From NCBI GenBank assembly GCA_965248635.1, contig OZ252114.1, forward strand, positions 3,103,309 through 3,167,308: DNA of 64,000 bases, in the 5' to 3' direction. Position numbers and translations under genes: made by a program. This DNA is from Acidobacteriota bacterium. GTDB lineage: Bacteria > Acidobacteriota > UBA6911 > RPQK01 > CBDAPI01. Below the pieces are notes generated by a model. It was not told where the DNA came from. It made no database searches and saw nothing but the letters and a program-made list of their open reading frames with translations. The stretch's first letter is position 1. Each line of letters begins with the position of its first letter. Positions 2,941-44,880 of this stretch are shown piece after piece.

Positions 2941-3915
2941 CTAAGCAGCTTGCTGGGTTTCAGGGGTCGGCGGGTCGGCTTGAACGGTGGTTAGAATCGC
3001 CTCCGAGTGCGGTTGTGCACGGCTTTGGGGTCTGGGTGAGAAAGTGTAGTTCCATTTTCCGAGGAAGTTGCTTCTAGCGAAGGAAAGCTGCTCCAGTTGC
3101 TGGTCTGAAACCTTGATTCCTTTCTGGTAAACTCGCCGGTCGCGGTAGGCCTCCACGCGTAGCCCGGTCAGGGTGCGTGTTTTGCGGGCGAAGTCGACGA
3201 GGGTCTGAAAACTTTTGAGCGGCTCTCCGGCCCAGTTCTTGGTGATTTCGCTGAAGAGTCGGTGTTCGATGGGGTTCCACTTGCTGGCGCCCGGGGGATA
3301 GTGGGCCACGGTAATGGTGAGTCCATAGGGGTCGGCGAGCCTCTCCTGGAGAAGCTTCTTCCAGGCGCGAGGGGCGGCTCCGTTGCTTCCGCCACAGTCG
3401 GCGAGAACCAGCAGGCGTTGGGACCGGCGGTAGTGGTCTTGACCGTGCTGACGCCACCAGGTGAGGATGCTGTTGACGGCAAAGGCTGGCGTATCGGCGG
3501 ACTGCCCCACCACCAGCACGCCAAAGTTGCGGCCCACATCGTAGATCCCATAGGGGCAGGCCAAGCCCACAGCCTGGGAACGAAAGTCATGGTCTTGGAC
3601 CTGCGGGGCGTCGCGACACCAGATCTTACCGGGGTTCTTGAACAGACCGATGAGCTCTTTTTTCTTACTATCGACGCAGATGACCGGGTCGCCGCTCTGG
3701 GCGAACTGCTGGCGCAATCGTTTGATGATCGCGAACTGGGCGTCCCGATAAGGGGAGTTTCCCGCCGACAGGCATTTTCGGTTACTCTTTAACGAATAGC
3801 CCAGCTTTTTGAGCAAGCGACGCACAGCCGTGGCCGAGATCTTCAGCTGCAGACTTTCGGCCAGGCAGCGGGCGATCTTTTCGGCCGTTTGATGAGTCCA
3901 TCTCCTGGCCGACAT
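2941..3915 (-). CDS. ISAzo13-family transposase, C-terminal DDE part (Rhodopirellula-type DDE transposase domain)
   Basis: …HYPPGASKWNPIEHRLFS… and DDE-type core. It is in the -1 frame relative to the upstream ORF. Confidence 0.75.
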   Translation of the reverse strand: MSARRWTHQTAEKIARCLAESLQLKISATAVRRLLKKLGYSLKSNRKCLSAGNSPYRDAQFAIIKRLRQQFAQSGDPVICVDSKKKELIGLFKNPGKIWCRDAPQVQDHDFRSQAVGLACPYGIYDVGRNFGVLVVGQSADTPAFAVNSILTWWRQHGQDHYRRSQRLLVLADCGGSNGAAPRAWKKLLQERLADPYGLTITVAHYPPGASKWNPIEHRLFSEITKNWAGEPLKSFQTLVDFARKTRTLTGLRVEAYRDRRVYQKGIKVSDQQLEQLSFARSNFLGKWNYTFSPRPQSRAQPHSEAILTTVQADPPTPETQQAA

Positions 3916-3962
3916 CGGGTCACCAGCGGTATCCGGCTCCAGCAGGCAACGGATCTGCTCGA

Positions 3963-4724
3963 TTACCTGCGGCGTTTTTTTTCGATGCGTTTTCGACCCC
4001 CGCCCGCCTTGCGCACCCGGCCCCGCCTCACCGAACCGGTCAACAGTTGCCGACGCCCCTTGGCCACGGTCTGGGGGACCAGATCCAGAAGCTCGGCCAT
4101 CTTCCGGTCACCTCCGTGGCCCAGTTTGGCCGCCTCCAGGCCGGCGTAGAGCCGTCTTTGCTTCTCATCCAGCAGACTGAAAAACAGGATGATGGCCGCC
4201 CTGAGTTCGTCCGGCAGAAACTCGCTCTCCAGGGTGGCACCCACCTGCCGGCGATCCTCGCCCTCTTGGCGCATCAACTCCTGACGCCTCCGCTCACCAG
4301 CCTCCTCGCTGAGGTAGACGAAGTTTCCCCCCAAGCGAGTGCGCCCAATCCTGCCTCGGCGCACCTGTCGCAGCAAGGCATGCTTGACCTCCACCTGCAG
4401 CACCGACTCCAACTCCGAGGCGGTGTAGCCCGCTTCGGATCGCTGCACCAACACGGCTGCCGTCTCCTGCAGATTCCCGAATCGGCTGAAGCGGGCCGAG
4501 CGCCAGCTCCACAAACCCCGACCATCGAAGTCAGCAATCTCCGCCAAGGTGTAGAACCGGCCCCGGTGTGAATAGCTGCTCAGATAGCCCAGTCGTGACA
4601 GACCACGGAACACCGTCATGGTGGCTGTGGTCTCAAGAGCTGCCTTGAGCTCCTCAATCGTGGCTATCCTATTGTCAGTTAACAGGTTGTGCAGTTTCGT
4701 ATCGCGTTCTCGTGACCTTTTCAT
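3963..4724 (-). CDS. ISAzo13-family transposase, N-terminal (HTH) part; ends at a stop immediately after an A8 tract
   Basis: Basic/HTH-like N-terminal region ending …GGGRKRIEKKRRR*. The downstream frame continues the same protein. Confidence 0.7.
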   Translation of the reverse strand: MKRSRERDTKLHNLLTDNRIATIEELKAALETTATMTVFRGLSRLGYLSSYSHRGRFYTLAEIADFDGRGLWSWRSARFSRFGNLQETAAVLVQRSEAGYTASELESVLQVEVKHALLRQVRRGRIGRTRLGGNFVYLSEEAGERRRQELMRQEGEDRRQVGATLESEFLPDELRAAIILFFSLLDEKQRRLYAGLEAAKLGHGGDRKMAELLDLVPQTVAKGRRQLLTGSVRRGRVRKAGGGRKRIEKKRRR

Positions 4725-4961
4725 TTGGTATAGTTTCCCCTCTACGTATCACACAAGGGGTAATTATACCAACTATTCCCACTCCTTACAACCGTCGTAA
4801 CTGCTTAACTTAACGAAGTTTAATGAGAAATGAGCGGAAACATCGGGAAGCTACGGGTGGTATTGATGCCCTGAGTACTGTGATTTTGTTTTTGCGCCAG
4901 CCCTAAGGTCGCGATCTACATCAGCCGCAGGGCGGCTGATACATATTACGAAAATCGCAGG

Positions 4962-6140
4962 TTACTCCATAATGCGCCGTCCAACTACTGCGCTGCGTCC
5001 AAAATTAACCTGATAGGAATCAAGGTCGCGCGACACTGCGCTTTCGAACTCTCGTAAATAACTGTGCGGCGATCCTGCCCAGTAATGAACGATGAGCAGG
5101 TCTTCACCCATCACCACAGCGCTGGGATAACCGAAATCGCCACTGACAGGAGTCGTCAATCGAAGCTGGTTCGAAGTGTCCCAGGTCTTGCCGCTATCCC
5201 GTGAAAGGATTCCTTGGATGTCTCTCTCCTTATCTCTTCGATTGCCGAAAATCAGGAGGATCGTGTCATGACCCAGATCGATAAGGTCAGCAGGATGCTG
5301 CCTTTTATCAGTCGCTTTCGCCACATGCCGCCAACTGCGGCCCTGATCGACGCTGCTGTAAATATCCAAGTGCGCACCATGGTGGGCATCGCGCGCGGCG
5401 GCAAGCAGCGTGCCACTGTCGAGTGCGAGCAAGCTCGTTTCGTTGTGGCCCGCGGCGATCAACGAAACGTCTCCCCAGCTGACCCCTTCATTCGTGGATC
5501 GGGCCAGGTAAGCATAATCCTCAACGTCATCCGTAGGGTTCGTGATCCCTGGGACGTCGGGGGCATGTGCGCCGTAGACGTTTTGGATATAGCTACCGTC
5601 GGACAGACGAATGATGCGACCGTAGGGTGAAGTCGTTTCCACGGTACCCAACTTCAGGTTCTGGAATTCAGACCAAGTCCGACCCTCATCATCGGAATAG
5701 ACCTGTATGTCTCTCGCCAAATCGAAGGAGGGTTCGTAAATTCCGTCCCCGGTGTAGCTGGACTGATGGTGAAACCCAAGCAGAAATCTCCCCTCAGGCG
5801 TGATGCCAAACGCCGGGTTGCGGTCATCGGCTGATGTATCAACTGCCGTCCGCTTCCCATACCACAAAAGCCCATCATTGGAGAAGAACAGGTCCAGTCG
5901 CCCTCCGATTCCCAGATGTCCGCCTCCTCCCCGCAGGACCACAACGGCTCGACCATCGGGAGCGAGATCGATCACTGGGAAATGCCCCTGCCCCTCAGCC
6001 ACCATCGAGGATCGAACCTCAGGGTGCGCGCCCAAATCGATTGGTGCGGCGACCTGAGATATCAGAGAAAGCAGGACGGATTGCAACAACATTGCGCGGT
6101 TCCTCAAACGGGGTTTCATGAATGGAATTGTGGAATTCAA
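4962..6140 (-). CDS. BNR/Asp-box repeat glycosyl hydrolase (sialidase-like), secreted
   Basis: Signal peptide (MKPRLRNRAMLLQSVLLSLISQVAAP). Four SxDxGxTW Asp-box motifs (SDDEGRTW, STNEGVSW, SVDQGRSW, SRDSGKTW). Confidence 0.7.
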   Translation of the reverse strand: MNSTIPFMKPRLRNRAMLLQSVLLSLISQVAAPIDLGAHPEVRSSMVAEGQGHFPVIDLAPDGRAVVVLRGGGGHLGIGGRLDLFFSNDGLLWYGKRTAVDTSADDRNPAFGITPEGRFLLGFHHQSSYTGDGIYEPSFDLARDIQVYSDDEGRTWSEFQNLKLGTVETTSPYGRIIRLSDGSYIQNVYGAHAPDVPGITNPTDDVEDYAYLARSTNEGVSWGDVSLIAAGHNETSLLALDSGTLLAAARDAHHGAHLDIYSSVDQGRSWRHVAKATDKRQHPADLIDLGHDTILLIFGNRRDKERDIQGILSRDSGKTWDTSNQLRLTTPVSGDFGYPSAVVMGEDLLIVHYWAGSPHSYLREFESAVSRDLDSYQVNFGRSAVVGRRIME

Positions 6141-6197
6141 CCTTAAGGGTAATGGGTCGGCAGGTCAAACCAGTCGAGTGAATCTCAGTTGGACGGT

Positions 6198-6840
6198 CTA
6201 CTCACCCCGGCCGTCGCTGGACGCCACGTTCGACCACACGAAAGTTCGCCCTTCCGCGAACCGTTTCAAGTCGAAGCGTTCGATATGTTGAGGGACTTCA
6301 TTTTCGACAATGAATTCTGCCATGGATCGACCAACCCAGGGTGATAGCGAAAAACCCCCTCCACTGAACCCGAGCGCGTAGAAAAGGCCGTCGAGCGTAG
6401 CCGCTCGATCCAGAATCGGAACTCCGTCGGGGGTATAGTCGTAGACGCAGGCGTAGGTCCGGTGAACAAAACCACTGGCCATCGGTGGCAGCGTGATCGC
6501 CAAACGGCGATGCATGTCCGCGAGGGACTCGTAATGGGCGGTCTGCTTGTAATGATCGGGGTCCTCCGCGACAAAGTCCTTCACGCCGTGCAGACGATCA
6601 CCTTCCCGCCAACCGACGAACATCTGTGCATCCCCTTCCGGTCGAAGGTAAAGCAACGACCGCGCGTCGGTCACGATTCGCGACAGGTGAAATTCGGCTA
6701 CAGATGGGGTCTGAAAAAATGCCATTTCTGCCCGATGGGGATGGACCGGCACGTCGACGCCAAGCTGTGCGAGTTGCGTTGTGCCCCACACCGAAGTTGC
6801 TACCAGAACCTGCGGCGCGTCGAATCGCCTGTCCTTTGCG
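6198..6840 (-). pseudogene. FAD-dependent oxidoreductase (DAO/glycine-oxidase-like), C-terminal fragment only
   Basis: Homology covers only the C-terminal substrate-binding/FAD-closing half (…VLVATSVWGTTQLAQLG…GFSGGGFSLSPWVG…). The N-terminal GxGxxG FAD-binding region is absent. Upstream is low-complexity DNA with a near-direct repeat ccccggaaaaaaatcag / cccccggaaaaaatcaa. Confidence 0.55.
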
Positions 6841-7058
6841 AAAAAATCCTCCCCGGAAAAAAATCAGCCCCCGGAAAAAATCAAAACAGGGGATTGCTTT
6901 TCATATATACGGCGCCGGCCGGTTTCTTTTTTTCTTTTTGGGTGCGTATAGGGTGTGGAAAGTGCGCTTAAACGACCTTCCTGACCGCACCTGACACCCC
7001 TGCAAACCCGCAAAGTACCGTCAATAATGGGTTCTGTGTCTAACAAACGAAGAACCAG

Positions 7059-7364
7059 TCACCCTTGCCAGCCATAGCGCCTCAGGTCCACCCGCCCCTT
7101 TTCATTGAACTCGACACCCTCGTTCTCGAGCAGGACCTGCTGAAGCTCGGCGGATGGCGAAGGAAGGCTGATGCGACCCTGAGCATTGAGAACTCGGTGC
7201 CATGGAACCTCAGTTCCCCGCTGCAGCGCGCGCATGGCCCAGCCCACCGCTCTGGCGCCACCCGGCCGGCCGGCCCGAGCGGCCACGGTTCCGTAGGTGG
7301 TCACCTTCCCCGGTGGGACCGCCCGCACAATGCGGTACACCTGTTGAAAATATCCCGCCTTCAT
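7059..7364 (-). CDS. alkyltransferase-like protein (ATL): MGMT DNA-binding domain with Trp replacing the acceptor Cys
   Basis: About 100 aa. Contains VPWHRVLNAQG, where canonical O6-methylguanine-DNA methyltransferase has PCHRV. This matches the YbaZ/Atl1 class. Confidence 0.75.
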   Translation of the reverse strand: MKAGYFQQVYRIVRAVPPGKVTTYGTVAARAGRPGGARAVGWAMRALQRGTEVPWHRVLNAQGRISLPSPSAELQQVLLENEGVEFNEKGRVDLRRYGWQG

Positions 7365-7498
7365 AATCTGTCACAGTAACAGACGGTCCCTTTCGTCGGC
7401 CCCCTCTTGGAAATCTCCTGTCATCTCGCACCGCTCGGCGGATCAGATTGGCGTGCCCTACAGCGAACGAGAAACGCGGGAGGGAGGAGGCACGGTAT

Positions 7499-8641
7499 TT
7501 ATTTCAACGACTCATAGATGGATGTCACCGCTCTGGCATTCTCTTCCCAGCTGAACTGAGCCGCTCTCTCCGGCCCGGCGGCCCGCATTTGCCCGAGGCG
7601 TTCCGGATTCTCGAGCAGTTCCAGGACCCGCGCGACCAGATCTTCCAATCTTTCCGGATCAAAGTATTCGACCACTGACCCTCCCACTTCGGGGATGGAA
7701 GAACGGTCAGAGGCCAGGACGGGGGCCCCACAGGCCAGGGCTTCGAGTACAGGTAAACCGAATCCTTCGTAGAGCGAAGGAAAGACAAACAAATCACTGG
7801 CGCTGTAGAAGGCGGGCAAGTCGTTATCCTCGACATAGCCCGGACACAGGACCCAATTCTCGAGATCCAACTCCTGAATTTTGCGCGTGAGTTCCTGAAC
7901 TTCAGGAATCTCTGTCCGGAAAGTCTCCCCGGCCAGAACCAGTGAGCCGGCATACCCCTGCTCTCGAACCTGAGCGAATCCCGTGATCAGAAAATCGAGG
8001 TTCTTCCGAAAGTCGCTCCCGCCCACGTAGAAGAGAAAGGAACCCTCGATCTCATGCTTGCTCTTCAGTCTCTCCCGGGCCGTGTCGGGCTCCACAGGTC
8101 GAAACAACGCGTTGCAGCCCGGGTACACGACCTCGACCTTTTCCTCTCCTATCCCCAGGTGAGAACAGATATCCTGTCGGGCCGATTCCGAAATAGTGAT
8201 GATCCGGTCGGCAATTCCGGTCCGGTTATAGGCGTGTTTCAGGCCGATCCGATAGTCGACCGGTATGCGGGTCTTCATCTGGGCCCAGTAAACCAAAGGG
8301 ATCACGTCATGCACAGTGACAACCAGGGGGCACGAGCAACGTTTCGGAAGCGCTGTTACTTCGGTCGCATGATAGAGGTCGAGACCATCCGAATGGATCC
8401 AGTTGTGTAAGCGAAAACGGTCCAGCAGCCAGTTCAGACGGCTGGGTCTCCGGACCTGCGGCAACTCTCTCCAGGTCACCTTTCTGGCTAGAGTTGGGCG
8501 CTCACTGCCGATCGTATAGAGCACGAAATCATGGTCGCTCGTCTGCAGGACATGCTCAATCTGACGGGCCGTGAATTTGCCTATGCCGCGGCGCCTCGAG
8601 TTAGGGCGCAGGACCGGGCGGTAGTCAATTCCGATACGCAT
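7499..8641 (-). CDS. glycosyltransferase family 4 (GT-B, RfaG-like)
   Basis: EGFGLPVLEALACGAPVLASD motif. Start refined to MRIGIDYR. Confidence 0.8.
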   Translation of the reverse strand: MRIGIDYRPVLRPNSRRRGIGKFTARQIEHVLQTSDHDFVLYTIGSERPTLARKVTWRELPQVRRPSRLNWLLDRFRLHNWIHSDGLDLYHATEVTALPKRCSCPLVVTVHDVIPLVYWAQMKTRIPVDYRIGLKHAYNRTGIADRIITISESARQDICSHLGIGEEKVEVVYPGCNALFRPVEPDTARERLKSKHEIEGSFLFYVGGSDFRKNLDFLITGFAQVREQGYAGSLVLAGETFRTEIPEVQELTRKIQELDLENWVLCPGYVEDNDLPAFYSASDLFVFPSLYEGFGLPVLEALACGAPVLASDRSSIPEVGGSVVEYFDPERLEDLVARVLELLENPERLGQMRAAGPERAAQFSWEENARAVTSIYESLK

Positions 8642-8926
8642 GATTTCTTTCGCTCTGACTCTACCCCGAGGAACGGCCCACATTCCAGGGGCAGTGTACT
8701 AGCAGTCCGTGGTGAAAATCCCACGCCAACCCACGTCCACGGCCGCGCGCGACTTTCACCGCCGGCTGCTGGGGTTCAAGTGGGATGAACCCTGGACAAA
8801 GTCACCCCGTCAATGTCAAAGAAGTACAGGTGCGTGTAGGAGGGAGCTGGGAAGGGATGCGGCAAGCAATCCACCCTGCTCTGTTACTCTGGAACAAATT
8901 TTCGACCCAACACGGAAAGGTTTGAC

Positions 8927-10300: not shown

Positions 10301-10302
10301 GT

Positions 10303-10550
10303 TCCAATGTTTCAAGGTTCCAACGTTCCAAGGTTCCAACGTTCCAAGGTTCCAACGTGCACCTCTTTTCCGCGTTACCGGCAAGGATGGAACCCCTCTG
10401 GGGTGCAGGAACGGTCAGGGGATGACCCTCCGTAGTTCGAACCGTGGGTCGGCGGACTGTCTTCCATTTGCGGTACAGATGCAAGTGTTGCTCTTGGCCT
10501 TCCGGCCTTGGAACTTTGGAACTCTGGAACGTTGGAACCTTGTTGCTAGT
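10303..10550. repeat. tandem GGTTCCAA octamer array (about 7 copies) and an inverted TTGGAAC array (about 4 copies) forming a long imperfect palindrome around a ~130-nt spacer
   Basis: Directly visible: ggttccaatgtttcaaggttccaacgttccaaggttccaacgttccaaggttccaacg … ccttggaactttggaactctggaacgttggaacctt. Confidence 0.85.
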
Positions 10551-10714
10551 GCAGCCCGCCATAAGTTCTGACCCAGCTTCAGGCGCCCCTCCCCGCCACT
10601 GGCGTTGTTGCGCTCGCTCGCCATATAGCTGGATATGACTCGCTCCCGACGCCTAGCCAGCGACGACGATTGACGCGCTGACCCTGGATCAGAACTTATG
10701 GCGAGATGCACTAG
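10545..10714. repeat. MITE-like element with 26-bp imperfect terminal inverted repeats
   Basis: ctagtgcagcccgccataagttctga (about 10545-10570) and tcagaacttatggcgagatgcactag (about 10689-10714) are reverse complements with 2 mismatches. The ~118-bp core is non-coding. Confidence 0.4.
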
Positions 10715-10718
10715 TGCA

Positions 10719-13741: not shown

Positions 13742-13760
13742 GACTGCCACCCTTCTGTCG

Positions 13761-23746: not shown

Positions 23747-25723
23747 TCACTCCCGGGCGTCGTGGCGGATCCAGACGGGCGATGACCAAGCCATGGCAAC
23801 CCGCCCTCGTACCGGCACACTCTGCTCGAGACGAACGTAATAGACGGCCCCGGACTGCACTTCCGCGTCGGCGTGCTCTCCCAGGAAATCCAGGCAACCA
23901 GGAGTCCACTGATGAACGACTTCAAAGTCTTTCTGGCCGGGCTGGTAGCGCAACACATCGATTCTCCGAATGCGATTGGTGCCGTATGCTTCAACCGTCA
24001 CGACGGTAGGACGGAGCAGCGCTGCCGTCTGCCCCATGGATGCACCGTTTACAGTCACTTTGAGGATGATCCTTGCCCCTGTGGTTCCATAGGTCCTCCG
24101 ATCGTAGAGGGCCTGGAAAATCGCATCCCTGGTCAACTGGGAGGCACGAACAGCGGTCAGCCCGTAGTGGGGTAAGCCCGGATGCGCCCGGTGATCATCG
24201 GATGCGGCGATGGTCGAGAGCTGAAGGCCTTGCTTCCATGCATCCTGGGCGTTGGCGGGGGTCTGCAGGCTGACAGAAGGAGCTGTGAAATCACTGTGTT
24301 CAAATGAGAGCGGGTGGTCAGGGTTGTAGGTTTCGCTGAGCCCGTGGGCCGAATAGAGCTCGAAATTGCGGCGAAATCCCGGGTCATGAATGGAAAAGTT
24401 GACGCCTCCGGGGAACTTGCCCGTGTGGTGCGGAACCGTAATCGCCTGCGCGTCGCCTAGCGCTGCCCAGATCTCCGGAAGAGTCGATGTGGACGGGAAG
24501 AAGAGCGCTCCGGGTCGGGCGCGGAAGTAAATATTGTGATGCCCGTAGGGGGCCGGGAGGGAACACTCATAGGCATGTAAAGTGACGAAGGAGCCGGGAT
24601 CGTGATGTCGTTCAGTCAGCGCCGTATATTCATCCCAGTAGGCCTGGCTGAGTCCCCGAGTCTTCCCTTCTCTCGAAACCAGGAGGTGGTCGGTCATGGC
24701 ATAGAAATCGAGGGCCGATATGTGACGGGCGTAATCAAAGTTGCCTTTGCCGACTCCATCCCAGCTGAAACGAGTGTGCGAATGAAGATCTCCCCAAAAC
24801 ACAGATTCCACGCTTTCGGTTTCCCTGACAAGCATCGGGTTGGAGACGCTTTCGAGTCGATAGCCGGCGACTCGGGAGAGCAGCCGCAGCACTCCTTCTT
24901 CTTTCGGAGTCACGTAGAAGGCAACGTGACCCTGGTCTTCGGACATCCGAAGCATCCGGGATATCTCGGCTCTCCCCGTCACCGCCTCGAGTTCGATCTC
25001 CAAAGGCACCCAGACTGCGTTGTCTTCTTTGTCGACAGCCGAAACAACGAACCTCGAGCGCCTGCCGACCTCTCCCTGAGAAGGCGCGTGTAGTTGCAGA
25101 GCTGTGGGAGCACCGGGGCGCGCCGTCAGCAAGGGTCCATCCAGGTGCAGCTGGAATCGATTGCTACCTTTGGGGTCAAGTGCCAGGAGAATGGGGCTTG
25201 GTCCGGAGGAAACAGCGGCAGCTCGGTAACCTGGACTTCCTCCTCCCACATCACCGTAGACCACCTCGATTCGATCACCCTCCACCAGCCGTCCAGCTCT
25301 GACAACGACCCGAACTACAAAGACGTAGCGCTCGCTGCGACCATCCAGTGACTCTTTCTCGTGCTTGACGAGCCTGATGGCCGTTTCAGATTCAACGATG
25401 GTCGACAGCTCCACATCAGCGCGGCCGATGTAGGCGCTGACATAGTGTTCCTCGGCAGGAAAAGAAGCCTGAAGCCGATTTGCCGAGTTGCGAGGCCCGG
25501 AATGCCATGCGTCGGGCAATTGCACCCGAATCCCACCGCCCCTATCGATCCCATCGGGACCCACCACATAGCTGACTGTCCAGGTCCCGAACTCTCCGGA
25601 AATTCCCCACTCTGGAGAAACCGAGACGGTCCCGGCATCGGTCCGCCCCTGTATCATGATCGGGATCGGGGCAGGAATCTCCTGGAGAACCAGGGAGGCG
25701 AGGAGAAGGGTTTCAATGAGCAT
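23747..25723 (-). CDS. DUF3604-family secreted protein with a PHP-like metal-binding motif
   Basis: Signal peptide. WGDLHSHTRFSWDG matches the PHP/DUF3604 histidine cluster. Size about 650 aa. Confidence 0.65.
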   Translation of the reverse strand: MLIETLLLASLVLQEIPAPIPIMIQGRTDAGTVSVSPEWGISGEFGTWTVSYVVGPDGIDRGGGIRVQLPDAWHSGPRNSANRLQASFPAEEHYVSAYIGRADVELSTIVESETAIRLVKHEKESLDGRSERYVFVVRVVVRAGRLVEGDRIEVVYGDVGGGSPGYRAAAVSSGPSPILLALDPKGSNRFQLHLDGPLLTARPGAPTALQLHAPSQGEVGRRSRFVVSAVDKEDNAVWVPLEIELEAVTGRAEISRMLRMSEDQGHVAFYVTPKEEGVLRLLSRVAGYRLESVSNPMLVRETESVESVFWGDLHSHTRFSWDGVGKGNFDYARHISALDFYAMTDHLLVSREGKTRGLSQAYWDEYTALTERHHDPGSFVTLHAYECSLPAPYGHHNIYFRARPGALFFPSTSTLPEIWAALGDAQAITVPHHTGKFPGGVNFSIHDPGFRRNFELYSAHGLSETYNPDHPLSFEHSDFTAPSVSLQTPANAQDAWKQGLQLSTIAASDDHRAHPGLPHYGLTAVRASQLTRDAIFQALYDRRTYGTTGARIILKVTVNGASMGQTAALLRPTVVTVEAYGTNRIRRIDVLRYQPGQKDFEVVHQWTPGCLDFLGEHADAEVQSGAVYYVRLEQSVPVRGRVAMAWSSPVWIRHDARE

Positions 25724-25736
25724 GAGTCCGTCCAGC

Positions 25737-26024
25737 TCAGGATTGATTCGCCCTGCTCAAAACCACGACGAACCGTTCCCTCAGGGACCCTACTTCCTGC
25801 CTGCCAAGCCGAACCTTGATGAGCACCTGGTAGTCGCCGGGTTCGAGTTGGTCCAGGCTGAACCGCGCGTTCACTGCGAAGGCTCCACTCGAGTCGCTCC
25901 CAAGTGGCTTCCAGGCACCCCCGTAGACCTCATCGGCGGCGGCGTCTAAGAGAACGATCTGGTATTCGCCAGGACTGGACAGGTTGGAGATTTTTCCGTG
26001 CCAGTAACAAAGTCGGCCATGCAA
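25737..26024 (-). CDS. hypothetical small protein (possible beta-sandwich domain)
   Basis: ORF only. No recognisable motif, and it is in a different frame from the downstream gene. Confidence 0.3.
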   Translation of the reverse strand: MHGRLCYWHGKISNLSSPGEYQIVLLDAAADEVYGGAWKPLGSDSSGAFAVNARFSLDQLEPGDYQVLIKVRLGRQEVGSLRERFVVVLSRANQS

Positions 26025-26874: not shown

Positions 26875-27036
26875 ATGTCCTCCTCTTTGGATCTGCACTG
26901 CTTGCGATTGTCTGGAAGGCTGTTGACAGCCTGGCAAGCACTCCAGAGAATAGCACGTCTATCATGCTTTCCCTCCAGGCCACTCCCTTCTCTCTAATTC
27001 CCTTACTATTCGCGCTCCAGCAGGGGCCTGCACCAT

Positions 27037-31927: not shown

Positions 31928-33544
31928 ATGCGAGTACTTCGACACCTTCTGCGAGCGCCGCCCCCGGGCAAGCCTGCAATGGTGGGCTGGTACAACCCGT
32001 TCCAATTGCTGCGCACGGGAGCTCAGGTTTTGCTGTCGGCCAGGTGGGTCCATCGGAAAAGCAGACCGGGAGAGCCCTCTGATCCAATAAGACGAGATCC
32101 GCCTTTCATTGACTACAGCTCCCATTCCCACAGCTCCTTTCATATCGACTATCTTGCGGACTGCGGGGACGGGTGGAGATCGACTTATTCAGTTGCCTAC
32201 TCCCTGGTTCTGGAGCAGAAGCTCCACAGAAGTCGCCAGGCTGCCACGCTCCCCAGGGCAGAGATCCTGGTCCTCGGGGGCGACCTGGTCTACCCCTATC
32301 CCGGAGACGGAGCCTACCAGCAGAGATTGGTCAAACCTTATTCTGAGGCACTCCCCCAGGTTCCGGAGCCCCAACCCGAAGTCCTGGCCATTCCCGGCAA
32401 CCATGACTGGTATGACGGGCTCGTCTGGTTCCGCCGGCTGTTCTGCTCGGGAGGCGACTTTGCAGCCTGGAAGACGCGCCAATCCTGCAGTTATTTTGCG
32501 GCGCGCTTGCCTTACAGCTGGTGGATTCTGGGCCTTGACACCGGGCTACGGTAAGACATTGATGCCCGTCAGGCTCGCTATTTCCACTCGATCCTTGACC
32601 AGATGACCCCCGCGGATCGAGTGATCATTTGTTACCCTGAGCCTCCATGGCTGCGCCCCTCATCCGCTTCCTCTCCTCACATCGAGGGACGCGTGAAGAA
32701 GCTGGAAGCCAGGCTGAGAGATTCCCACCAGCTTCTCGAGTTGTCGGGAGACAGCCATAATTATCAGCGGTCCTCGCGAGGGCAGTGTCACCGCGTGGTG
32801 TGTGGAACAGGTGGTGCCTTTCTCCATCCAACACACGTTGTCCCGTGCGAGGCGCGGGCCGACGGGTATCGGCAGGAGAAATTCTACCCTGATCGGCGCG
32901 TGTCCTCGGCCCTGAGCTTGGCCAACCTCTGGTTCGCGCTCAGAAACCCTAGATTCGGAATGCTCGCTGTCACCGTCTATGTGCTCCTAACCTCGGTGAG
33001 AGCTGCCAGCCCGACCGGTCTCTCTCTCTACCTTCTACTGGTTGCCGGGTGTGTTTTCTTTGCCGACAGCTCAACGCGCTGGTTCCGCTGGGTTGCCGGC
33101 ACCTCTCACGCACTGCTTCATGTCGGGGCAGGCTGGATTCTCCTCTGGAGCAGTTCGCGCGTTGCTTTGTCCTGGCTGAACCTCGAGCCGGAGTCCATCG
33201 CCCATTACCTGACTGTCGGGGCTCTCTTCGCTGGTGGTGCGTGGGCCGTGGGCTCCACCATTGTGGGGCTCTACCTGTTCTTTTCACTCAACCTCTTCGG
33301 AAGACATTTGAACGAGTCTTTCAGCGCCCTTCGCATCGAGGACTGGAAGGGCTTTCTGCGGATTCGGGTCAGTCCAGATGGCCTCCTGGAGGGTTTCTTC
33401 TTTGGAATTGACAGGGTTCCTCGGCGGTGGAGGCGAAACCCTGCAGCACAAGGTCCAGCCTGGCTGCCACGGCGACCCGGCCCGCTGGCCCGCCTGGTGG
33501 ATCATTTCCAGGTAGGCGCAAAGAAGGAAGCCGCGCCCCGCTAG
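31928..33544 (+). pseudogene. calcineurin-like metallophosphoesterase with C-terminal membrane domain, interrupted by an in-frame TAA at 32552-32554
   Basis: Track ORFs 31928..32554 and 32603..33544 are in the same frame. The sequence reads …LDTGLR-TAA-DIDARQARYFHSILDQMTPADRVIICY…, and metallophosphatase motifs (GDLVYP, GNHD, GDSHNY, GTGGAFLHPTH) lie on both sides of the stop. Confidence 0.6.
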
Positions 33545-38362: not shown

Positions 38363-38526
38363 AACATCTGCTTCTGGTACTGGACATCTCCGAGGGTGGG
38401 AGGGGCCCCGAGGCCGCGACCTCCGGGCGTGATGTTCACCAACGCCGGTCGCCGCCGAAGACGCCTCCCACTTTGAAATTTCCGACCCGATGAACCGGGC
38501 CACTGTCCATCCGCTAAAATACCCGG

Positions 38527-39279
38527 GTGGAAGGCGAGGCCATCACCAGTTCTCAGAATCCCCGGTTTAAACTCTGGAAATCGTACATTCAGTCGCCCCA
38601 AGACGGGAACTGCCCCTGGATTGCTGTGGAGGGCCCAAAGCAGGCTCTTGATCTGAGTTCGAAACATAGGATCGAACTCCTTCTCTACTCTGCTGACGAC
38701 TCCCTCGCTCCGATTCTGAGCAGGCAAGCTCCCCCCTGTGTCCGCCTCCCCTCGGATCTCTTGTCCCGGCTCTCCAGAGTCCGCAGTCATCAAGGTGTCA
38801 TTGCTTTTTTTGAGAAGCCGGTCTGGAGCTGGGATGACGCTTCGGAATGGATCCTCTATCTGGAAGGGATACAGGATCCAGGCAATCTCGGGACCCTTCT
38901 CCGTACGGCCCGGGCCACCGGCCGCTTTTCACTTGTCTCAGACCCTGGCGCAGTTTCCTTCTTCAATTCAAAGGTCGTGCGAGCCTCCAGTGGAGCTTTG
39001 TTCCAGGTTCCCTTTCTGGAGGGTGTTGCTGTGGCAGAATTGAAACGGCGAAACTACCGAGTCATTGCTGCCTCTGCTTCCGGCCGGGAAAGTCTTTTGG
39101 ACCAGCAATTCGCTCCCAGGACCGCTTTTATCCTGGGAAACGAAGGCCAGGGCGTGACCGGAAAAGCCCTGGAAATGTCTGACCAGGTTTTTCGGATTCC
39201 CATGGAGACGGGATGCGATAGCCTGAACGCGTCGGTTGCGGGATCGCTTATCATGTACCAGGTATACCTTAGCAGTTAG
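38527..39279 (+). CDS. TrmH/SpoU-family RNA 2'-O-methyltransferase
   Basis: SpoU methylase C-terminal motifs (ILGNEGQGV, IPMETGCDSLNASVAGSLIMY). Confidence 0.8.
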   Translation: MEGEAITSSQNPRFKLWKSYIQSPQDGNCPWIAVEGPKQALDLSSKHRIELLLYSADDSLAPILSRQAPPCVRLPSDLLSRLSRVRSHQGVIAFFEKPVWSWDDASEWILYLEGIQDPGNLGTLLRTARATGRFSLVSDPGAVSFFNSKVVRASSGALFQVPFLEGVAVAELKRRNYRVIAASASGRESLLDQQFAPRTAFILGNEGQGVTGKALEMSDQVFRIPMETGCDSLNASVAGSLIMYQVYLSS

Positions 39280-39290
39280 AGACCCCGAAA

Positions 39291-40640
39291 ATGAGCCAGG
39301 ACCTGTTTTCCAGTGATGAGTCGCCTTCATCTCCGGAGGAAGCCGGACCACTGGCCGAACGGATGCGTCCCCGGTCGCTGTCGGAAGTGGTCGGTCAGGA
39401 AGCCCTCTTGTCGGAAGGCCGGTTTCTGCGCCGGGTGATCGATCAGGATCAGGTTCCTTCCTTGATCTTGTGGGGCCCTCCGGGTGTCGGAAAAACAACC
39501 GTTGCAAGAGTGATCGCCGGAGCGACGGGGGCGCATTTCGTTGCCCTGAGTGCTGTTTTTTCCGGGGTGAAAGAGGTGAAGCAGGTGCTCAAGGAGGCTG
39601 AATACCAGCAGCGGGCTTTCTCCCGGCGGACGATCCTCTTCGTAGACGAGATTCACCGCTTTAACAAGGCTCAGCAGGACGCTTTTCTGCCTCACGTCGA
39701 AAGAGGCTCCATCACGCTGATCGGGGCGACGACCGAGAACCCTTCTTTTGAAGTGATCTCGCCTCTGCTCTCGAGATCCAGGGTGGTCGTTCTCGAATCC
39801 CTGTCGGAGCCAGATCTGATGCAACTGCTCAAGCGGGCCCTGCAGGAAGAAGAGCGAGGCCTCGGATCCCTTCATTTATCCTGCACTGAGGAGACCCTTA
39901 GTCTGATCGCTACCCATGCCAACGGCGATGCACGCGTTGCTCTCAACGCTCTGGAAGTCGCCGCCAGCCTGATCGACTCTGCAAGTGATCGCACCCTTAC
40001 GCCGAAACTCGTGAGGGAAGCCCTTCAGAAAAAGACGCTTCTCTATGACAAATCCGGTGAAGAACACTTCAATCTGATTTCGGCCCTGCACAAGTCGCTT
40101 CGCAACAGTGACCCGGACGCTGCCCTCTACTGGTTGGCCCGCATGTTGGAGGCGGGAGAGGACCCCCTCTTTATAGCCCGGCGGATGATCCGCTTCGCCT
40201 CCGAGGATGTCGGTCTGGCTGACCCAGGGGCGGTTGGAAGGGCCATCGACGGCCTTCGCGCGTTTCAGTTCATCGGGCTTCCGGAAGGCAAGCTGGCGCT
40301 CGCCCAGGTAGCCATCGACCTGGCTCTGGCTCCGAAGTCCAATTCCGTTTACCGAGCTTACGCCGGGGCAGCCGGTGATGTGGAGTCAACTCGAAACGAT
40401 CCCGTGCCGCTGCACCTCAGGAATGCTCCCACCGGCTTGATGAAAGAAATTGGTTACGGAGCCGGCTATGAATACGCGCATGATGATCCCGACGCCATAA
40501 CCGCCATGTCCTGTTTGCCTGAAAACCTCAGTGGCAGAAGCTACTATAGGGCGACCGATCATGGTCATGAAGCTCGACTCAAACAAAGACTCGAGCAGGT
40601 CAGGAAAATGGCAGGGGCCCGGAAAACCCGGACCACCTGA
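39291..40640 (+). CDS. rarA: replication-associated recombination protein A (AAA+ ATPase)
   Basis: WGPPGVGKTT Walker A plus the MgsA C-terminal domain. Confidence 0.85.
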   Translation: MSQDLFSSDESPSSPEEAGPLAERMRPRSLSEVVGQEALLSEGRFLRRVIDQDQVPSLILWGPPGVGKTTVARVIAGATGAHFVALSAVFSGVKEVKQVLKEAEYQQRAFSRRTILFVDEIHRFNKAQQDAFLPHVERGSITLIGATTENPSFEVISPLLSRSRVVVLESLSEPDLMQLLKRALQEEERGLGSLHLSCTEETLSLIATHANGDARVALNALEVAASLIDSASDRTLTPKLVREALQKKTLLYDKSGEEHFNLISALHKSLRNSDPDAALYWLARMLEAGEDPLFIARRMIRFASEDVGLADPGAVGRAIDGLRAFQFIGLPEGKLALAQVAIDLALAPKSNSVYRAYAGAAGDVESTRNDPVPLHLRNAPTGLMKEIGYGAGYEYAHDDPDAITAMSCLPENLSGRSYYRATDHGHEARLKQRLEQVRKMAGARKTRTT

Positions 40641-40698
40641 AGCTGCAGCCACTGTTTAGATCCAGATCGGGAAGGTTGCTGCTCCCTCTACTGCTGCT

Positions 40699-41721
40699 AT
40701 GGAAAAAGCCGTTCACGAATTCATTTCCCCGCTGTCCTGGCCCTTCCTGGTTCTGACCATCGCGGCTACCCTTGGCCTGCTGGCAAAGGGAGCCGACTGG
40801 CTCGTCGACCAGGCTGTCTTGCTCTCGGCCCGGTCAGGCATTCCCAAAGTGGTGGTCGGGGCGACCATCGTGAGTCTGGGGACCACGACCCCTGAGGCGG
40901 CGGTTTCCGTCCTGGCAGCGGTGCAGGGAAAGCCCGGCCTGGCACTCGGCAACGCCGTCGGTTCCATCATTTGCGACACAGGACTCATCCTCGGCCTGGC
41001 CTGTCTGATTGCTCCCCTGCCACTCGATCGGAAAATCGTGAATCGGCAGGGCTGGATCCAGATTCTTTCCGGGCTGGGGCTGGTTCTGGCCTGCCTACCC
41101 TGGAGCAGCCTGGACTCAGTATTCACCAGGGGCGGGAATCTAGCCCAGAGCAGCGGCCTGTTCCTTCTTATGCTGCTGGCCGTCTACCTCTGGATCTCGG
41201 TGGTCTGGGCCAGGAGAGAGGCTCCTGCAACTCCATCAAAGCCCCGCTTGGAGAACCGGGGGAGTAACCTGGCGATTCTCGTACGCCTGATTCTTGCCAC
41301 TGCTCTCGTAGTCGCCGCATCCTGGATCCTCATTCCAGCCGTCAGTGAGGCCGCCGGCCGCATACGCGTGCCGGAAAGTATCATCGCTGCCACCCTGGTC
41401 GCTTTTGGCACGTCCCTTCCGGAACTGGTTACGGCTATCACGGCCGCACGCCAGGGCCACGGCGAGCTGGCCGTCGGCAACGTCATCGGAGCGGACATCC
41501 TCAACGTCCTTTTTGTAGCGGGAGCGGCGGCGGCGGTTACTCCTGCAGGCCTGCCGGCCCCGGCTCATTTTTTCTCTCTCTACTTTCCATCCATGTTGTT
41601 TCTCCTGCTGGTTCTACGGATTGGAATTTTTGTCTGTAAGGATCACCTCACCCGGCCCTTCGGCACGATTCTGCTGGTCTCCTACGTAGCCGTCACGATC
41701 CTGAGCTACGTGGGGCGGTGA
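40699..41721 (+). CDS. CaCA-family cation/calcium antiporter (YrbG-like)
   Basis: Two alpha-repeat GNAVGS-type motifs. About 10 TM helices. Confidence 0.8.
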   Translation: MEKAVHEFISPLSWPFLVLTIAATLGLLAKGADWLVDQAVLLSARSGIPKVVVGATIVSLGTTTPEAAVSVLAAVQGKPGLALGNAVGSIICDTGLILGLACLIAPLPLDRKIVNRQGWIQILSGLGLVLACLPWSSLDSVFTRGGNLAQSSGLFLLMLLAVYLWISVVWARREAPATPSKPRLENRGSNLAILVRLILATALVVAASWILIPAVSEAAGRIRVPESIIAATLVAFGTSLPELVTAITAARQGHGELAVGNVIGADILNVLFVAGAAAAVTPAGLPAPAHFFSLYFPSMLFLLLVLRIGIFVCKDHLTRPFGTILLVSYVAVTILSYVGR

Positions 41722-41739
41722 CAACTTGAGGAGACGGCT

Positions 41740-43506
41740 TTGCCCACCTTCATCCCCGCCCTGATCGGTCTGCTTGCCTTCAGCCTCTTGCCGGGCGTGG
41801 CCCTGCTGGACCGAAGGCGCCCTTTCATCGAGCAACTGGGTACGTCCGTCGCCATTAGCGTGGCCTTGAACTCCTTTCTGGTCATGCTGCTGGTTCTTTT
41901 CAAGACCTACACCCTGGTGATCGGCTGGATCTGGTTAACGATTCTCCTGGGAGTGACGCTGTTCATCCGTCAAGAGCGGGACTGGATCCGGTCGAGGTTC
42001 CAGGTTCCAGCACTGGCCACGGCCCCACAGGCCTCCACCAGGCTGCTCGTCCCCGTCCTTGCCATCGTGGCATACAAGTCCTTCGCCCTGCCCTTCTTTG
42101 CCTGGGACAGCATCGCCTCCTGGAACCGGTGGGCCCTATGTCCTCTCTGGGGATGCCTCTCAGGAGCCGTCCGCTCACGGCTTTGCGTTCTTCTGCTTTC
42201 TGATCCTTTGGCCCGGCGTCTGGAGGCTCTCCACCTGCTTCTCGGTTCCGGGAGCCCTTGCCTGCGCTGCAGTCATGGTTCCTCTGGGCGTGTCCAGCTA
42301 CGCGGGTACCGGTTATTCCGATATCGCAGCCAGCGGTTTCTCTTGTCTGGCTCTGGCCCTGACCCTGGAAGCCTTTTCCGCTTCCCGAGTCCGGGGGGAC
42401 CCGGTTCTGTGGCGTTCCACCCGGAACCGGGCTCTTCTGGCCGGCCTGGCGGCAGGAACTGCTTTCCACTACAAGCTGCTGGCTCCCCTGGGCTTCGGCG
42501 CGCTCCTGCTCGGCCTGGTCGTCCTGGCGGGCCGGTCTGGCCTGGGTCGGCGCCTGCGACTCTCGGTACTGAGTGGATTGGCGGGCCTGGTCGTGATTGC
42601 TCCCTGGGTTCTGTCCAGCAGCGCGGCCCTGACGGATCCGCTGCTCCACTATGTCACGACAGGAATCCATGGAGACGCTTCCAGGATCGAAATTCTCGTC
42701 GACGGGGCCCGGGTGCTTGTGGCGGGTACAACGGCCTTCAATTCATCATTCATAGATGTCTCTGTGTTCCTGGCAGGATTCGCCCTTTTCTTTATTGGAT
42801 CCCGGAGAAGCGCAGAGGCGTTCGCCCTGGGGGGTGCTGCCCTGGTCGGGGCTCTTGTCTGGATGGCAACCGCGAACTACGATACGAGAGCTCTCATGCC
42901 CTTTCAGATTGCGGCTGTGGTTCTTTCGCTGGCCGGCCTAGACGTGATTCTCGACCGTGTCCGCAACGCGAGTCTGCGTTACTCGATCGTGCTCTCTCTG
43001 CAGGTCACCTGCCTTCTTGCCTATCTGATTCCACAGTTTGCTCCGGACTTTCGAGTCGGCGCGGCCAGAGCCATGGACTGGCAACCCGGAAGGCACTGGA
43101 TCAAAGCCCCCCCCTGACGGCCCGCCACAACAAGCTCAGATTCCTTCAACCCGCACTCGCCGACCTGACCGCCTGGCAGGCCGAGCACGCGAACCTAACG
43201 GGATCTATCTGGACGAATCCTCTGCTCCTGGCCGAACTCGACCGGGCGGAGGTCGACAGCCGCAGCAACTGGATGGGGAAGCTGGAGTGGGAAGGAGAGG
43301 TTCTGTGGCAGCGGGGAGACGTTCTGCTGGTCTGCGACTTTGACCGTGACACTCCCAAACTTTCCTATCCGGTGATTGATGGACTCGTTGGCAGCTCTCC
43401 ATCCACGTGGGGTCCGTGGGTTTTGGCAGCAGAAGAGAAGGGAGTCATCCAGCTGCAGGCCAAATATGAGAGCATGAAGGTTTATCGAATCGTGGCAGAC
43501 CCTTGA
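41740..43506 (+). pseudogene. polytopic membrane protein (ArnT/PMT-like glycosyltransferase fold suspected) with two compensating frameshifts
   Basis: Frame 1 codes plausible TM protein for 41740 to about 42135. Frame 2 (track ORF 42059..43117) then codes plausible TM protein until a C7 run at about 43108-43114. Frame 1 again codes a plausible soluble C-terminal domain to 43506. The intervening frame-1 stretch is R/P/G-rich nonsense. Confidence 0.5.
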
Positions 43507-43589
43507 GACGGCAGGGATTTCTACGGTCCCGCCGGCAGACGAACTTCGCTCAGGCTTCTGAATAAACCCGAGGCTCAGACGTAATACCC

Positions 43590-44141
43590 GTGTCAAAGAA
43601 CGATCTTGGTACGACAGAGGAGAAGCTGTTGCAGCAGGCTGCAGCCGGAACCAGAGAAGCTTACGGTCGGATCTTTAAGCTTCATCGAGGCAGAGCCTAC
43701 GGATTGGCCTTTCACTACACGAAGAACAAAGAAGACGCCATGGATGTCGTCCAGGACGCTTTCATGCGGGCTTATCTGAACCTGAACAAGTTCGACTTCC
43801 GACGCGAGTTTCGTCCCTGGCTCCTATCGATCGTGCGCAATCTGGCCATCGACCTGCTGCGCAAGCGAAAACGCACCCGCACAGATGAATTACCTGCTGT
43901 TCTGCCTGAGCGCAGCAACCGGACTCATGCCGATCAGAAGCTGCTCAAGAGGGAGATCTGGGATCTGATAAATGAGCTCTCAAAAGACCAGAGAGAGATT
44001 ATTTTCTTAAAAGACTATCAGGGCCACAGCTACGCCGAAATCGCCGAAATTGTGGACATTCCACTGGGTACCGTGATGTCCCGACTTCACCATGCACGCA
44101 AGAAACTGGCGGCGCTGCTCAAGGAGAGCAGGAATGTCTGA
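43590..44141 (+). CDS. RNA polymerase sigma-70 factor, ECF subfamily
   Basis: Sigma-70 regions 2 and 4. GTG start. Confidence 0.85.
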   Translation: MSKNDLGTTEEKLLQQAAAGTREAYGRIFKLHRGRAYGLAFHYTKNKEDAMDVVQDAFMRAYLNLNKFDFRREFRPWLLSIVRNLAIDLLRKRKRTRTDELPAVLPERSNRTHADQKLLKREIWDLINELSKDQREIIFLKDYQGHSYAEIAEIVDIPLGTVMSRLHHARKKLAALLKESRNV

Positions 44142-44568
44142 GAAAGAGATCGAGGTACTTCTCTCCGGCTATCTTGACGGTGAACTCACACAACAGGAGA
44201 GACAGAAAGTAGGTGTGTATCTGGAGCGCGATGAGCGTTACCGTGAGATCCTGGCGGAACTCGAACGGGTGAAAACTGAAACCGAGAGCCTCAACTATGA
44301 GGAGCCCAGTTCCGGAGACTGGAAGATCATGGAGAAGAGCCTTGTGGAGGACGTCAGTCGAGGTCTGGGATGGGTCATCCTGTCGGTCTGGGCAGTCGTT
44401 CTGACGTCTTACGGACTGTGGGAGCTGGCCACGGCCCCTGATGAGCCGTTGCTAGGGAAACTCCTGGTTTTCGGGGTCTTTCTGGGAGTTGCGCTTCTCT
44501 TTTTCTCGGTTCTCGCTCAGCGAGTGCGCGAGAGTCGCACGGACAAATACAAGGGAGTCTACAAATGA
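44134..44568 (+). CDS. anti-sigma factor (membrane-anchored)
   Basis: N-terminal …LSGYLDGELTQQERQKV… anti-sigma helix plus a C-terminal TM segment. The ATG lies 8 nt inside the sigma gene. Confidence 0.6.
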   Translation: MSEKEIEVLLSGYLDGELTQQERQKVGVYLERDERYREILAELERVKTETESLNYEEPSSGDWKIMEKSLVEDVSRGLGWVILSVWAVVLTSYGLWELATAPDEPLLGKLLVFGVFLGVALLFFSVLAQRVRESRTDKYKGVYK

Positions 44569-44880
44569 TCGTTAGCACTACGGACGATATTGCCGGTCGG
44601 CGAATCGTCAAGACAATCGGCGTCGTTCGCGGCAATGCAGTGCGATCGAGACACCTGGGTCAAGACATCCTGGCGGTTCTGCGCAACGTCGTCGGGGGTG
44701 AGATCCATGAGTATGTGAAGCTGGCGGCGGAAGCTCGCGAGCAGGCCATGGACCGAATGGTGGATGAGGCTGAAGAACTAGGAGCCAACGGCATCGTCGG
44801 CATTCGCTTTGGAACCGCCATGATCATGTCCGGCGCGGCCGAACTTCCTCGTCTATGGAACCGCCGTGATCGTCGAGTAG
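44565..44880 (+). CDS. ybjQ: YbjQ/UPF0145 family protein; annotated frame carries a 1-nt insertion near its 3' end
   Basis: MIVSTTDDIAGRRIVKTIGVVRGNAV… matches YbjQ. After …SGAAE the +1 frame gives LVYGTAVIVE*, the conserved YbjQ C-terminus (compare E. coli …SGTAVK). The in-frame reading instead extends to 44969 through a repeat element. Confidence 0.7.

Follow-up and report, generated by a model that had tools for sequence, protein, structure and literature searches.

The broken reading frames in the 64,000 nt stretch of DNA from an uncultured Acidobacteriota species analysed here (the window) are probably not homopolymer errors of the assembly; taken jointly, the break at the A8 run of an ISAzo13 transposase would be a programmed or slippage site proper to an ISAzo13 sub-clade, and the other lesions would be real inactivating mutations in dispensable genes. 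A sequence-only reading of the window had placed breaks in the transposase, in a membrane gene and in ybjQ at homopolymers or near-homopolymers, and offered long-read consensus errors or gene decay as causes. All the frame breaks and the stop codon that it reported are present, but their contexts were mostly mis-described, and the better fit is gene decay in a genome rich in IS elements, given the lesions found in relatives in a phosphoesterase-like gene, in the membrane gene and in the neighbourhood of ybjQ.

Comparisons with conspecifics used low-coverage long-read contigs (2–11x), which may carry errors of their own, and covered the part of the window between its left 18 kb and its right 10 kb. 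For the region of the membrane gene and ybjQ these were five contigs with 98.3–99.5% nucleotide identity (L014–L018), and five loci from sister species (L001–L005) were added in the comparison of the membrane gene. A search of genome contigs returned relatives from sister species only, at 57–82% amino acid identity. Look-ups of exact products for further carriers of the lesions (the 134-aa ybjQ product, the 588-aa ORF of the membrane gene and ORF1 of the insertion sequence) gave no match, nor did those with the products of the sigma, anti-sigma, MGMT and GT4 genes.

The insertion sequence comprises the following features:

2900..4913, minus strand, ISAzo13-family insertion sequence of about 2.0 kb, apparently full length (profiles, homology to L022, inverted repeats)
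3963..4724, minus strand, transposase ORF1 (OrfA, 253 aa), with its TAA end three codons past the slippery run
2941..3981 (also given as 2941..3915), minus strand, transposase ORF2 with the DDE domain, in the -1 frame (PF07592, NF033519)
3975..3982, minus strand, slippery run A8 (T8 on the plus strand) at the ORF1/ORF2 junction, conserved in relatives

The transposase scores above the curated model cutoffs of the ISAzo13 family: Pfam PF07592 matches ORF2 (E 2e-103, 345.9 bits), and NCBIfam NF033519 matches residues 183–564 of the fused OrfAB product with 457.5 bits (cutoff 200), spanning the ORF1/ORF2 junction. Imperfect terminal inverted repeats of 35 nt, with around 24 matches, lie at approximately 2900–2934 and 4879–4913; one of these ends is backed by the start of L022, a copy with 98.8% DNA identity on an independent contig, whose homology begins at window position 4907.

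The transposase break had been correctly assigned to the A8 run, which lies at the junction between ORF1 and ORF2, the latter in the -1 frame relative to the former, and which forms (GAA AAA AAA C) the heptamer A_AAA_AAA in the phase of ORF1. This junction and the -1 relation are kept in 20 of the 22 informative related loci, with amino acid identities of 47–98%, and the run in those 20 is A8, except for A9 in two; the other two informative loci are distant fused relatives without the run. Related ISAzo13 elements sit mostly on JGI metagenome contigs, and the A8 is identical in L022. In the split relatives, ORF1 (56–65% amino acid identity) and ORF2 (64–69%) are preserved over their full length without internal stops, a stop in the 0 frame follows 3–4 codons after the run, and the codons flanking the run vary. 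Likewise, the closest database proteins (60–71% identity; NCBI, JGI, Logan and ENA) are nearly all C-terminal halves of 326–416 aa. The site is thus conserved and, judged from sequence comparison, we infer that it would serve for a programmed -1 frameshift or for transcriptional slippage, and is not damage.

Under this model, ORF1, the 253-aa N-terminal part, would terminate right after A_AAA_AAA, and either a -1 ribosomal slip on the run or the addition of one A by the RNA polymerase would produce an OrfAB transposase of approximately 594 aa; such recoding would cap the dosage of transposase, as in IS1 and IS3. As a general rule, A_AAA_AAA leads to ribosomal frameshifting, and runs of more than seven A lead to transcriptional realignment (PMC3711429). 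RNAalifold predicted no conserved pairs among 11 sequences in the region downstream of the A8, which leans toward transcriptional slippage or frameshifting independent of structure. More generally, and tentatively, a widespread ISAzo13 sub-clade with a 170-aa N-terminal extension might be arranged as OrfA/OrfAB and express its transposase only via this conserved programmed -1 frameshift, or slippage of transcription, at A8/A9; papers connecting ISAzo13 with frameshifting were sought in a literature library, and none was found there. ISAzo13 would then join the IS families having a transposase with a conserved slippery run. Homopolymer "frameshift" calls can therefore mislead, and an annotator or polisher "repairing" the A8 would wreck a genuine recoding site. 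An altered form of the run, intended as a mutant design, is AAGAAGAA.

Outside this element, lesions or truncations were seen in these genes, listed with the transposase gene that adjoins one of them:

31928..33544, plus strand, metallophosphoesterase-like membrane gene, a pseudogene interrupted in frame by the TAA at 32552..32554
44565..44969, plus strand, ybjQ (PF01906 family) with an additional T at 44845 (conspecific alignment)
6198..6791, minus strand, 5'-truncated remnant of a FAD-dependent oxidoreductase gene (DAO; PF01266 positions 208–352 of 353 only)
2491..2859, minus strand, truncated polysaccharide deacetylase gene (PF01522 positions 5–96 of 124)
854..2221, IS91-family transposase gene (Y2_Tnp and Zn_Tnp_IS91 matches)

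The phosphoesterase-like gene, whose Pfam Metallophos match is weak and under the curated cutoff, is interrupted by a TAA that lies in frame between the ORFs 31928..32554 and 32603..33544. The earlier view that this stop is a different kind of lesion was right; the codon is CAA in conspecific L007. L007 itself has gained TCTC (4 nt) at 33018, and L008–L011 have an internal deletion of 527 nt; every conspecific that covers the gene has it broken, with three different lesions among conspecifics. The gene is absent from the sister species represented by L001, L002 and L005, and substitutions across strains at codon positions 1, 2 and 3 are 9, 2 and 11, respectively, which are small counts.

The break in ybjQ had also been ascribed to a homopolymer or near-homopolymer, but the additional T at 44845 changes CTCC to CTTCC (GAAC-TCCTC to GAACTTCCTC), that is, T1 to T2, which is not a homopolymer. 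It replaces the last 12 codons of ybjQ and lengthens the ORF to 134 aa, whereas the intact gene would end at 44880. An intact conspecific protein of 104 aa (P0001) is found on 8 contigs, and ybjQ is intact in L014–L018 and in sister species. In one sister locus (L003) ybjQ contains an IS3-like insertion, and the anti-sigma gene is hit by an IS in L018 and by a nonsense change in L017; relatives thus show both IS insertions and nonsense changes in the sigma/anti-sigma/ybjQ neighbourhood.

Two genes toward the left end of the window are truncated. The oxidoreductase remnant has no N-terminal half upstream, and the coding potential of the deacetylase gene, which adjoins the IS91-family transposase gene, stops at around position 2491. 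Two further ORF pairs were considered as nonsense splits and rejected, since the pair 10719/11460 comprises separate genes for an ABC ATPase and HlyD and the pair 60353/60776 two copies of ExbD. We found no further within-gene frame switch elsewhere in the 64-kb window, where the 23S rRNA and all the housekeeping genes are unbroken.

The most extensively altered gene is defined by three features:

41740..43506, plus strand, lineage-specific multi-pass membrane protein gene, inactivated here (intact orthologues in relatives)
42134..42137, plus strand, junction at which 83 nt are deleted, with CCC microhomology (versus five conspecific and five sister loci)
43107..43114, plus strand, C8 run arising from the loss of a T in CCCCTCCCC (alignment to conspecifics)

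An intact ORF of 614–622 aa is present in L014–L018 and in L001–L005, and in all the conspecific and sister loci compared except L044 and L045, which have independent breaks (a GG insertion in L044, and TGG to TAG, W122*, in L045). The protein has only 18 homologous clusters among 5.8 billion proteins and no relative in Pfam, NCBIfam or PDB. The glycosyltransferase-like label that it had received finds an echo only in non-significant GT-C fold matches: the top Foldseek matches to an AlphaFold model of low confidence (pLDDT 54.6) were AftA, STT3 and AglB (E 0.08–0.5, TM 0.2–0.3).

Coding potential across 41740..43506 switches from frame 0 to +1 and back to 0. The first switch had been attributed to a G3C3 run, but it corresponds to the 83-nt deletion, which adjoins GGGCCC (approximately 42131..42136), removes codons 133–160, with invariant residues including R133, F135, P150–S154 and S158–P160, and shifts the frame. 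The second, reported as a C7 run, is a C8 made by the loss of a T at 43110 from the C4TC4 form CCCCTCCCC, which occurs in all conspecifics, sister species showing either CCCCTCCCC or other codons; this 1-nt deletion brings reading back to the original frame (83+1=84). An ORF-based annotator would call this doubly shifted gene an intact protein of 588 aa with around 325 nonsense residues. Private changes in the gene amount to five nonsynonymous and five synonymous, small counts without a clear nonsynonymous excess, from which inactivation would be recent, although an artefact would look alike.

Two functional explanations of these membrane-gene lesions were considered and rejected. A poly-C tract of eight, in a multi-pass membrane protein with GT-C glycosyltransferases as its best, albeit non-significant, fold matches, could recall a contingency switch, by which slipped-strand mispairing at the C8 would drive phase variation of a glycosyltransferase-like surface gene. 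However, the length of the tract is not polymorphic, the structural model behind those matches is of low confidence, and the gene is already destroyed by the deletion upstream; with an interrupted tract in conspecifics, we consider phase variation very improbable. The 83 and 1 nt lesions could otherwise be a selected compensatory pair giving a working protein of 588 aa whose middle part is new, as frame 0 is open over all 588 codons and the C-terminal domain is again read in frame. Nevertheless, in all the intact conspecific genes the alternative frame has no stop between codons 39 and 561, and its openness is therefore a pre-existing chance property; besides, some 325 codons of the conserved transmembrane core are turned into an Arg/Pro/Gly/Ser-rich sequence without coding potential, and restoration of the frame by chance has a probability of 1/3. 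A selected double frameshift thus has a negligible likelihood, and we favour plain inactivation of the gene.

The remaining alternatives invoke the assembly. That all the breaks, including that of the ISAzo13 transposase, are assembly indel errors at homopolymers is highly unlikely, in spite of the coincidence with frame breaks of the only two homopolymers of at least 8 nt in the 64 kb. One of these, the A8, is a conserved putative recoding site, kept in 20 related loci and in the 98.8%-identical independent contig, and the other, the C8, is itself the product of a lesion. The 26 genic homopolymers of 6–7 nt in the 64 kb are all in frame (26/26). Nor do the other changes alter the length of a long homopolymer: 42136 is an 83-nt deletion, 43110 a T lost from C4TC4 and 44845 a change from T1 to T2. 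Additionally, of the 10–11 indels private to the window, 7 fall in the non-functional 10% of the compared sequence (binomial P ~1e-5) and only 3–4 in the functional 90%, a depletion in functional sequence that is not how random consensus errors, which arise regardless of function, would spread. Private substitutions (41 nonsynonymous and 43 synonymous) favour third codon positions, and this pattern of purifying selection indicates that the base calls reflect real evolution. The conserved A8, the 83-nt deletion, the context of the ybjQ change and this depletion of indels together speak against the long-read consensus-error pattern that had been proposed.

A narrower version accepts the 83-nt deletion as real and takes the T lost at 43110, the T gained at 44845 and possibly the TAA as residual long-read consensus errors, leaving ybjQ and perhaps the phosphoesterase-like gene intact in the organism. 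A rate of three coding errors per ~26 kb (around Q40) is plausible, and around one per 10 kb would suffice for both single-base indels; the genomes of sister species are MAGs in the style of long-read assemblies, with contig names of the Flye type, isolated frameshifts or stops occur in low-coverage conspecific contigs (a frameshift in ABC1 of L010; stops in L017 and L018), and one of the two indel sites is a C-rich near-homopolymer. Even so, we regard this version as unlikely. At neither site has a long homopolymer simply changed in length, the genic 6–7-nt homopolymers and all the housekeeping genes are spared, one of the indels lies in a gene that the 83-nt deletion inactivates in any case (random chance ~1.85/33 kb = 6%), and the phosphoesterase-like gene is broken anyway in every conspecific that covers it.

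Real inactivation, the reading that we prefer, also agrees with what is expected of pseudogenes: the lesions stand against intact orthologues of the membrane gene and ybjQ, and against CAA in L007, and independent lesions occur elsewhere in the phosphoesterase-like gene, the membrane gene and ybjQ. Support is good for the 83-nt deletion and for decay of the phosphoesterase-like gene throughout the species, and we infer that the two single-base indels (43110 and 44845) are real as well. The non-IS lesions would be private to the source genome and confined to dispensable genes (the membrane gene, ybjQ and the phosphoesterase-like gene); in a lineage of Acidobacteriota that is rich in IS elements and losing accessory genes, real inactivating mutations would be their most likely origin. 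These results indicate that strain-specific IS insertions and inactivated accessory genes are numerous in the species; the pattern of breaks is ordinary and overturns no current knowledge.

This pattern resembles the formation of pseudogenes and the expansion of IS elements under relaxed selection, with differing lesions in the same dispensable genes across strains, strain-specific IS insertions and truncated gene remnants beside IS elements, but differs from massive reductive decay in that, within the 64 kb seen, the housekeeping genes are unbroken and purifying selection still acts on substitutions. Homopolymer errors of long reads, from nanopore or HiFi, share with it the ORF-splitting single-base indels, one of them in a C-rich tract; in contrast, the lesions described here do not lengthen or shorten long homopolymers that were already there, one of them spans 83 nt, functional sequence is avoided, and genes with 6–7-nt homopolymers are unbroken. 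In turn, the ISAzo13 element parallels the OrfA/OrfAB organization of IS1 and IS3 (surveyed in PMC3711429) in its two ORFs, the second of them in the -1 frame, in the in-phase A_AAA_AAA within an A8, in the close 0-frame stop and in a site that is conserved while its flanks diverge. It departs from them in belonging to the ISAzo13 family and in the lack of a conserved downstream structure among the sequences folded, and from the canonical ISAzo13 members of a plasmid collection, which consist of one ORF (about 400 aa) and lack the N-terminal extension of 170 aa.

The window has a G+C content of 57–60%, and its nearest relatives among genome collections are uncultured Acidobacteriota MAGs (L001–L005) with 79–89% nucleotide identity, which are sister species. 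For this comparative evaluation we used as conspecifics the contigs L007–L018, with 98.3–99.5% nucleotide identity and drawn from several ENA long-read metagenome assemblies. Differences private to the window were polarised against the unanimous state of 2–7 conspecific contigs over 29.4 kb, and included the following indels:

22611, non-functional sequence: G6 run extended to G7, within a 5′ leader
22696, 26151, 51040 and 51247, non-functional sequence
46143, non-functional sequence: 4 nt past the 5S rRNA
49539 (~49539..49570), non-functional sequence: 16-nt tandem duplication upstream of the 23S
42136, 43110 and 44845, functional sequence
27035, ambiguous: in what may be an N-terminal extension encoded by the ABC1 kinase gene

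The sequence-only reading had noted a cluster of genes broken at homopolymers, proposing either consensus errors or gene decay in an IS-rich genome. The breaks exist, but the homopolymer contexts described for the membrane gene and ybjQ were not borne out, and the explanation by homopolymer errors is largely unsupported. Of the compared region, 90% is functional, and random consensus errors would not leave so few indels in functional sequence (binomial P ~1e-5). The genic homopolymers of 6–7 nt are all in frame (26/26). No private indel was found in the 23S rRNA gene (2.97 kb). In intact genes, the substitutions private to the window comprise 41 nonsynonymous and 43 synonymous changes, and their distribution over codon positions 1, 2 and 3 (30/10/44) indicates purifying selection. 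All the recognisable housekeeping genes are intact (HisRS, AspRS, Lon, GcvP, RarA, RecA, RelA/SpoT, LytB, thiolase and Fpg). Errors may persist at ~1 per 10 kb, a rate that could by itself account for both single-base indels; we nevertheless infer for these, with reasonable confidence, an origin in real mutations. Gene decay is the better fit, given the IS-rich left end of the window and the different IS found among conspecifics. Overall, the gene breaks are an ordinary finding.

The coding potential of the membrane gene (41740..43506) passes from frame 0 to +1 and back to 0; sister loci L001–L005 and conspecific contigs L014–L018 encode a single ORF of 616–620 aa. The frame switches had been placed at a G3C3 and a C7 run and are present, but their contexts differ from those proposed: at the first, next to GGGCCC, 83 nt have been deleted, with microhomology of CCC, which eliminates codons 133–160, invariant residues among them; the second is the missing T of CCCCTCCCC, which results in a run of C8, not C7, at 43107..43114. 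Since the deletion and the lost T add up to 84 nt, the C-terminus is in frame again and all 588 codons are open. This openness is a chance property, because in all the intact conspecific genes the alternative frame already lacks stops from codon 39 through 561. Owing to the natural lack of stops in the -1 frame, the doubly shifted gene still gives a single open 588-aa ORF; ~325 of its residues are out of frame, and an ORF-based annotator would score it as intact. The family is very small, comprising 18 clusters among 5.8 billion proteins, with no relatives found in Pfam, NCBIfam or PDB. GT-C transferases were the best fold matches, but they were non-significant and the structure model was poor (pLDDT 54.6), so the earlier label of glycosyltransferase-like is unproven. 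Homologues in two other related genomes were inactivated independently, by a change of the invariant W122 codon from TGG to TAG (L045) and by a GG insertion (L044).

In ybjQ, a single T gained at 44845 (GAAC-TCCTC to GAACTTCCTC) replaces the conserved C-terminal strand of YbjQ and lengthens the ORF to 134 aa; the intact 104-aa protein (P0001) occurs on eight conspecific contigs, some of short-read style. The ybjQ gene of sister locus L003 is interrupted by an IS3-like element (L003:14003-15630), and the anti-sigma gene carries a 1.5-kb IS in L018 (L018:8367-9827) and a GAA to TAA stop in L017 (L017:9699-9701). Relatives L003, L017, L018, L044 and L045 each have their own disabling events within this same ybjQ/anti-sigma/membrane-gene cluster.

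The codon at 32552 is TAA in the window versus CAA in conspecific L007. The surrounding gene, with a weak Metallophos match under the curated cutoff, is absent from sister species L001, L002 and L005, contains a 527-nt internal deletion in L008–L011, and has a 4-nt TCTC insertion in L007. All the observed copies are broken by differing lesions, in what looks like a picture of real decay.

The left end of the window contains, in this order around an ISAzo13 element:

854..2221, IS91-family transposase gene (Y2_Tnp and Zn_Tnp_IS91), adjoining a truncated polysaccharide deacetylase gene (region 854..2859)
6198..6791, minus strand, 5′-truncated FAD-dependent oxidoreductase (DAO) remnant, profile positions 208–352 of 353 only

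The deacetylase gene is cut off at Pfam position 96 of 124. In place of the missing N-terminal half of DAO there is a spacer rich in A/T runs, before an intact MGMT-like gene (7059..7364). IS21, IS110, IS256-like, IS4/5-like and IS3-like insertions occupy differing places among the conspecific contigs, and from this strong variation IS activity looks high in the species. Together with the left-end remnants, it supports an IS-rich genome that is losing accessory genes. In L007, L009 and L012, the ABC1 gene contains IS21-like elements; in L008, an outer-membrane barrel gene is interrupted by an IS256-like element; and IS110 adjoins the tRNA in L014 and L016. In the window, the private extra base at 27035 is directly upstream of the ABC1/UbiB-like kinase ORF and takes away a putative 24-codon N-terminal extension called in conspecifics (600 aa). 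The 877 nt at 25122..25998 are the N-terminal part (~200 aa) of a 658-aa CehA/DUF3604-like gene; L007, L012 and L013 have ~220 nt instead, with genes called at 402–455 aa, and in L008 an IS adjoins the same breakpoint (25999).

Two other loci lie further along:

45478..46002, minus strand, 174-aa ORF matching only the last 74 positions of TIGR02428 (80 bits versus a cutoff of 243)
46147..49289, minus strand, complete 23S and 5S rRNA genes, with fpg as the next gene upstream

The first, equally long in conspecifics, is probably an old remnant of a gene for 3-oxoacid CoA-transferase subunit B (TIGR02428). No 16S gene was found near the 23S and 5S genes, which suggests an unlinked rRNA arrangement.

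The chief by-product of the analysis is a putative slippery-run recoding site, conserved in a sub-clade of ISAzo13. In the window element, the transposase is encoded in two parts:

3963..4724, minus strand, ORF1, ending in a TAA three codons past GAAAAAAAAC
2941..3915, minus strand, ORF2, in the -1 frame, carrying the homology onward from ORF1

NCBIfam NF033519 matched the fused product in a single stretch across the junction (457 bits; cutoff 200), and ORF2 contains a PF07592 match. A metagenome scan for relatives retrieved 23 loci, 22 of them informative. The transposase had been considered broken at an A8 run by error or decay; the same junction, at the identical residue and with ORF2 in the -1 frame, is kept in 20 of the 22. 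All 20 split loci have A8 (A9 in two) at the junction, in A_AAA_AAA phase and with a stop in frame 0 after it, and the codons flanking the run differ among them; the run is absent from two distant fused relatives. A separate JGI contig (L022) contains an element 98.8% identical in DNA, likewise with A8. No conserved RNA structure was predicted 3′ of A8. The site matches published criteria for programmed recoding (PMC3711429), in which A_AAA_AAA is the motif for ribosomal frameshifting and transcriptional realignment takes place on A runs of more than 7. From this agreement and the conservation of the site, the break would be a functional feature, neither error nor decay. Our literature search found no paper connecting ISAzo13 to frameshifting. 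The nearest relatives in protein searches (60–71% identity), from many sources, are nearly all C-terminal halves of 326–416 aa, and fused transposases of ~565 aa are more remote (43–61%). The window element differs from the canonical plasmid ISAzo13 transposases, which are encoded by a single ORF of ~400 aa and lack the 170 N-terminal residues.
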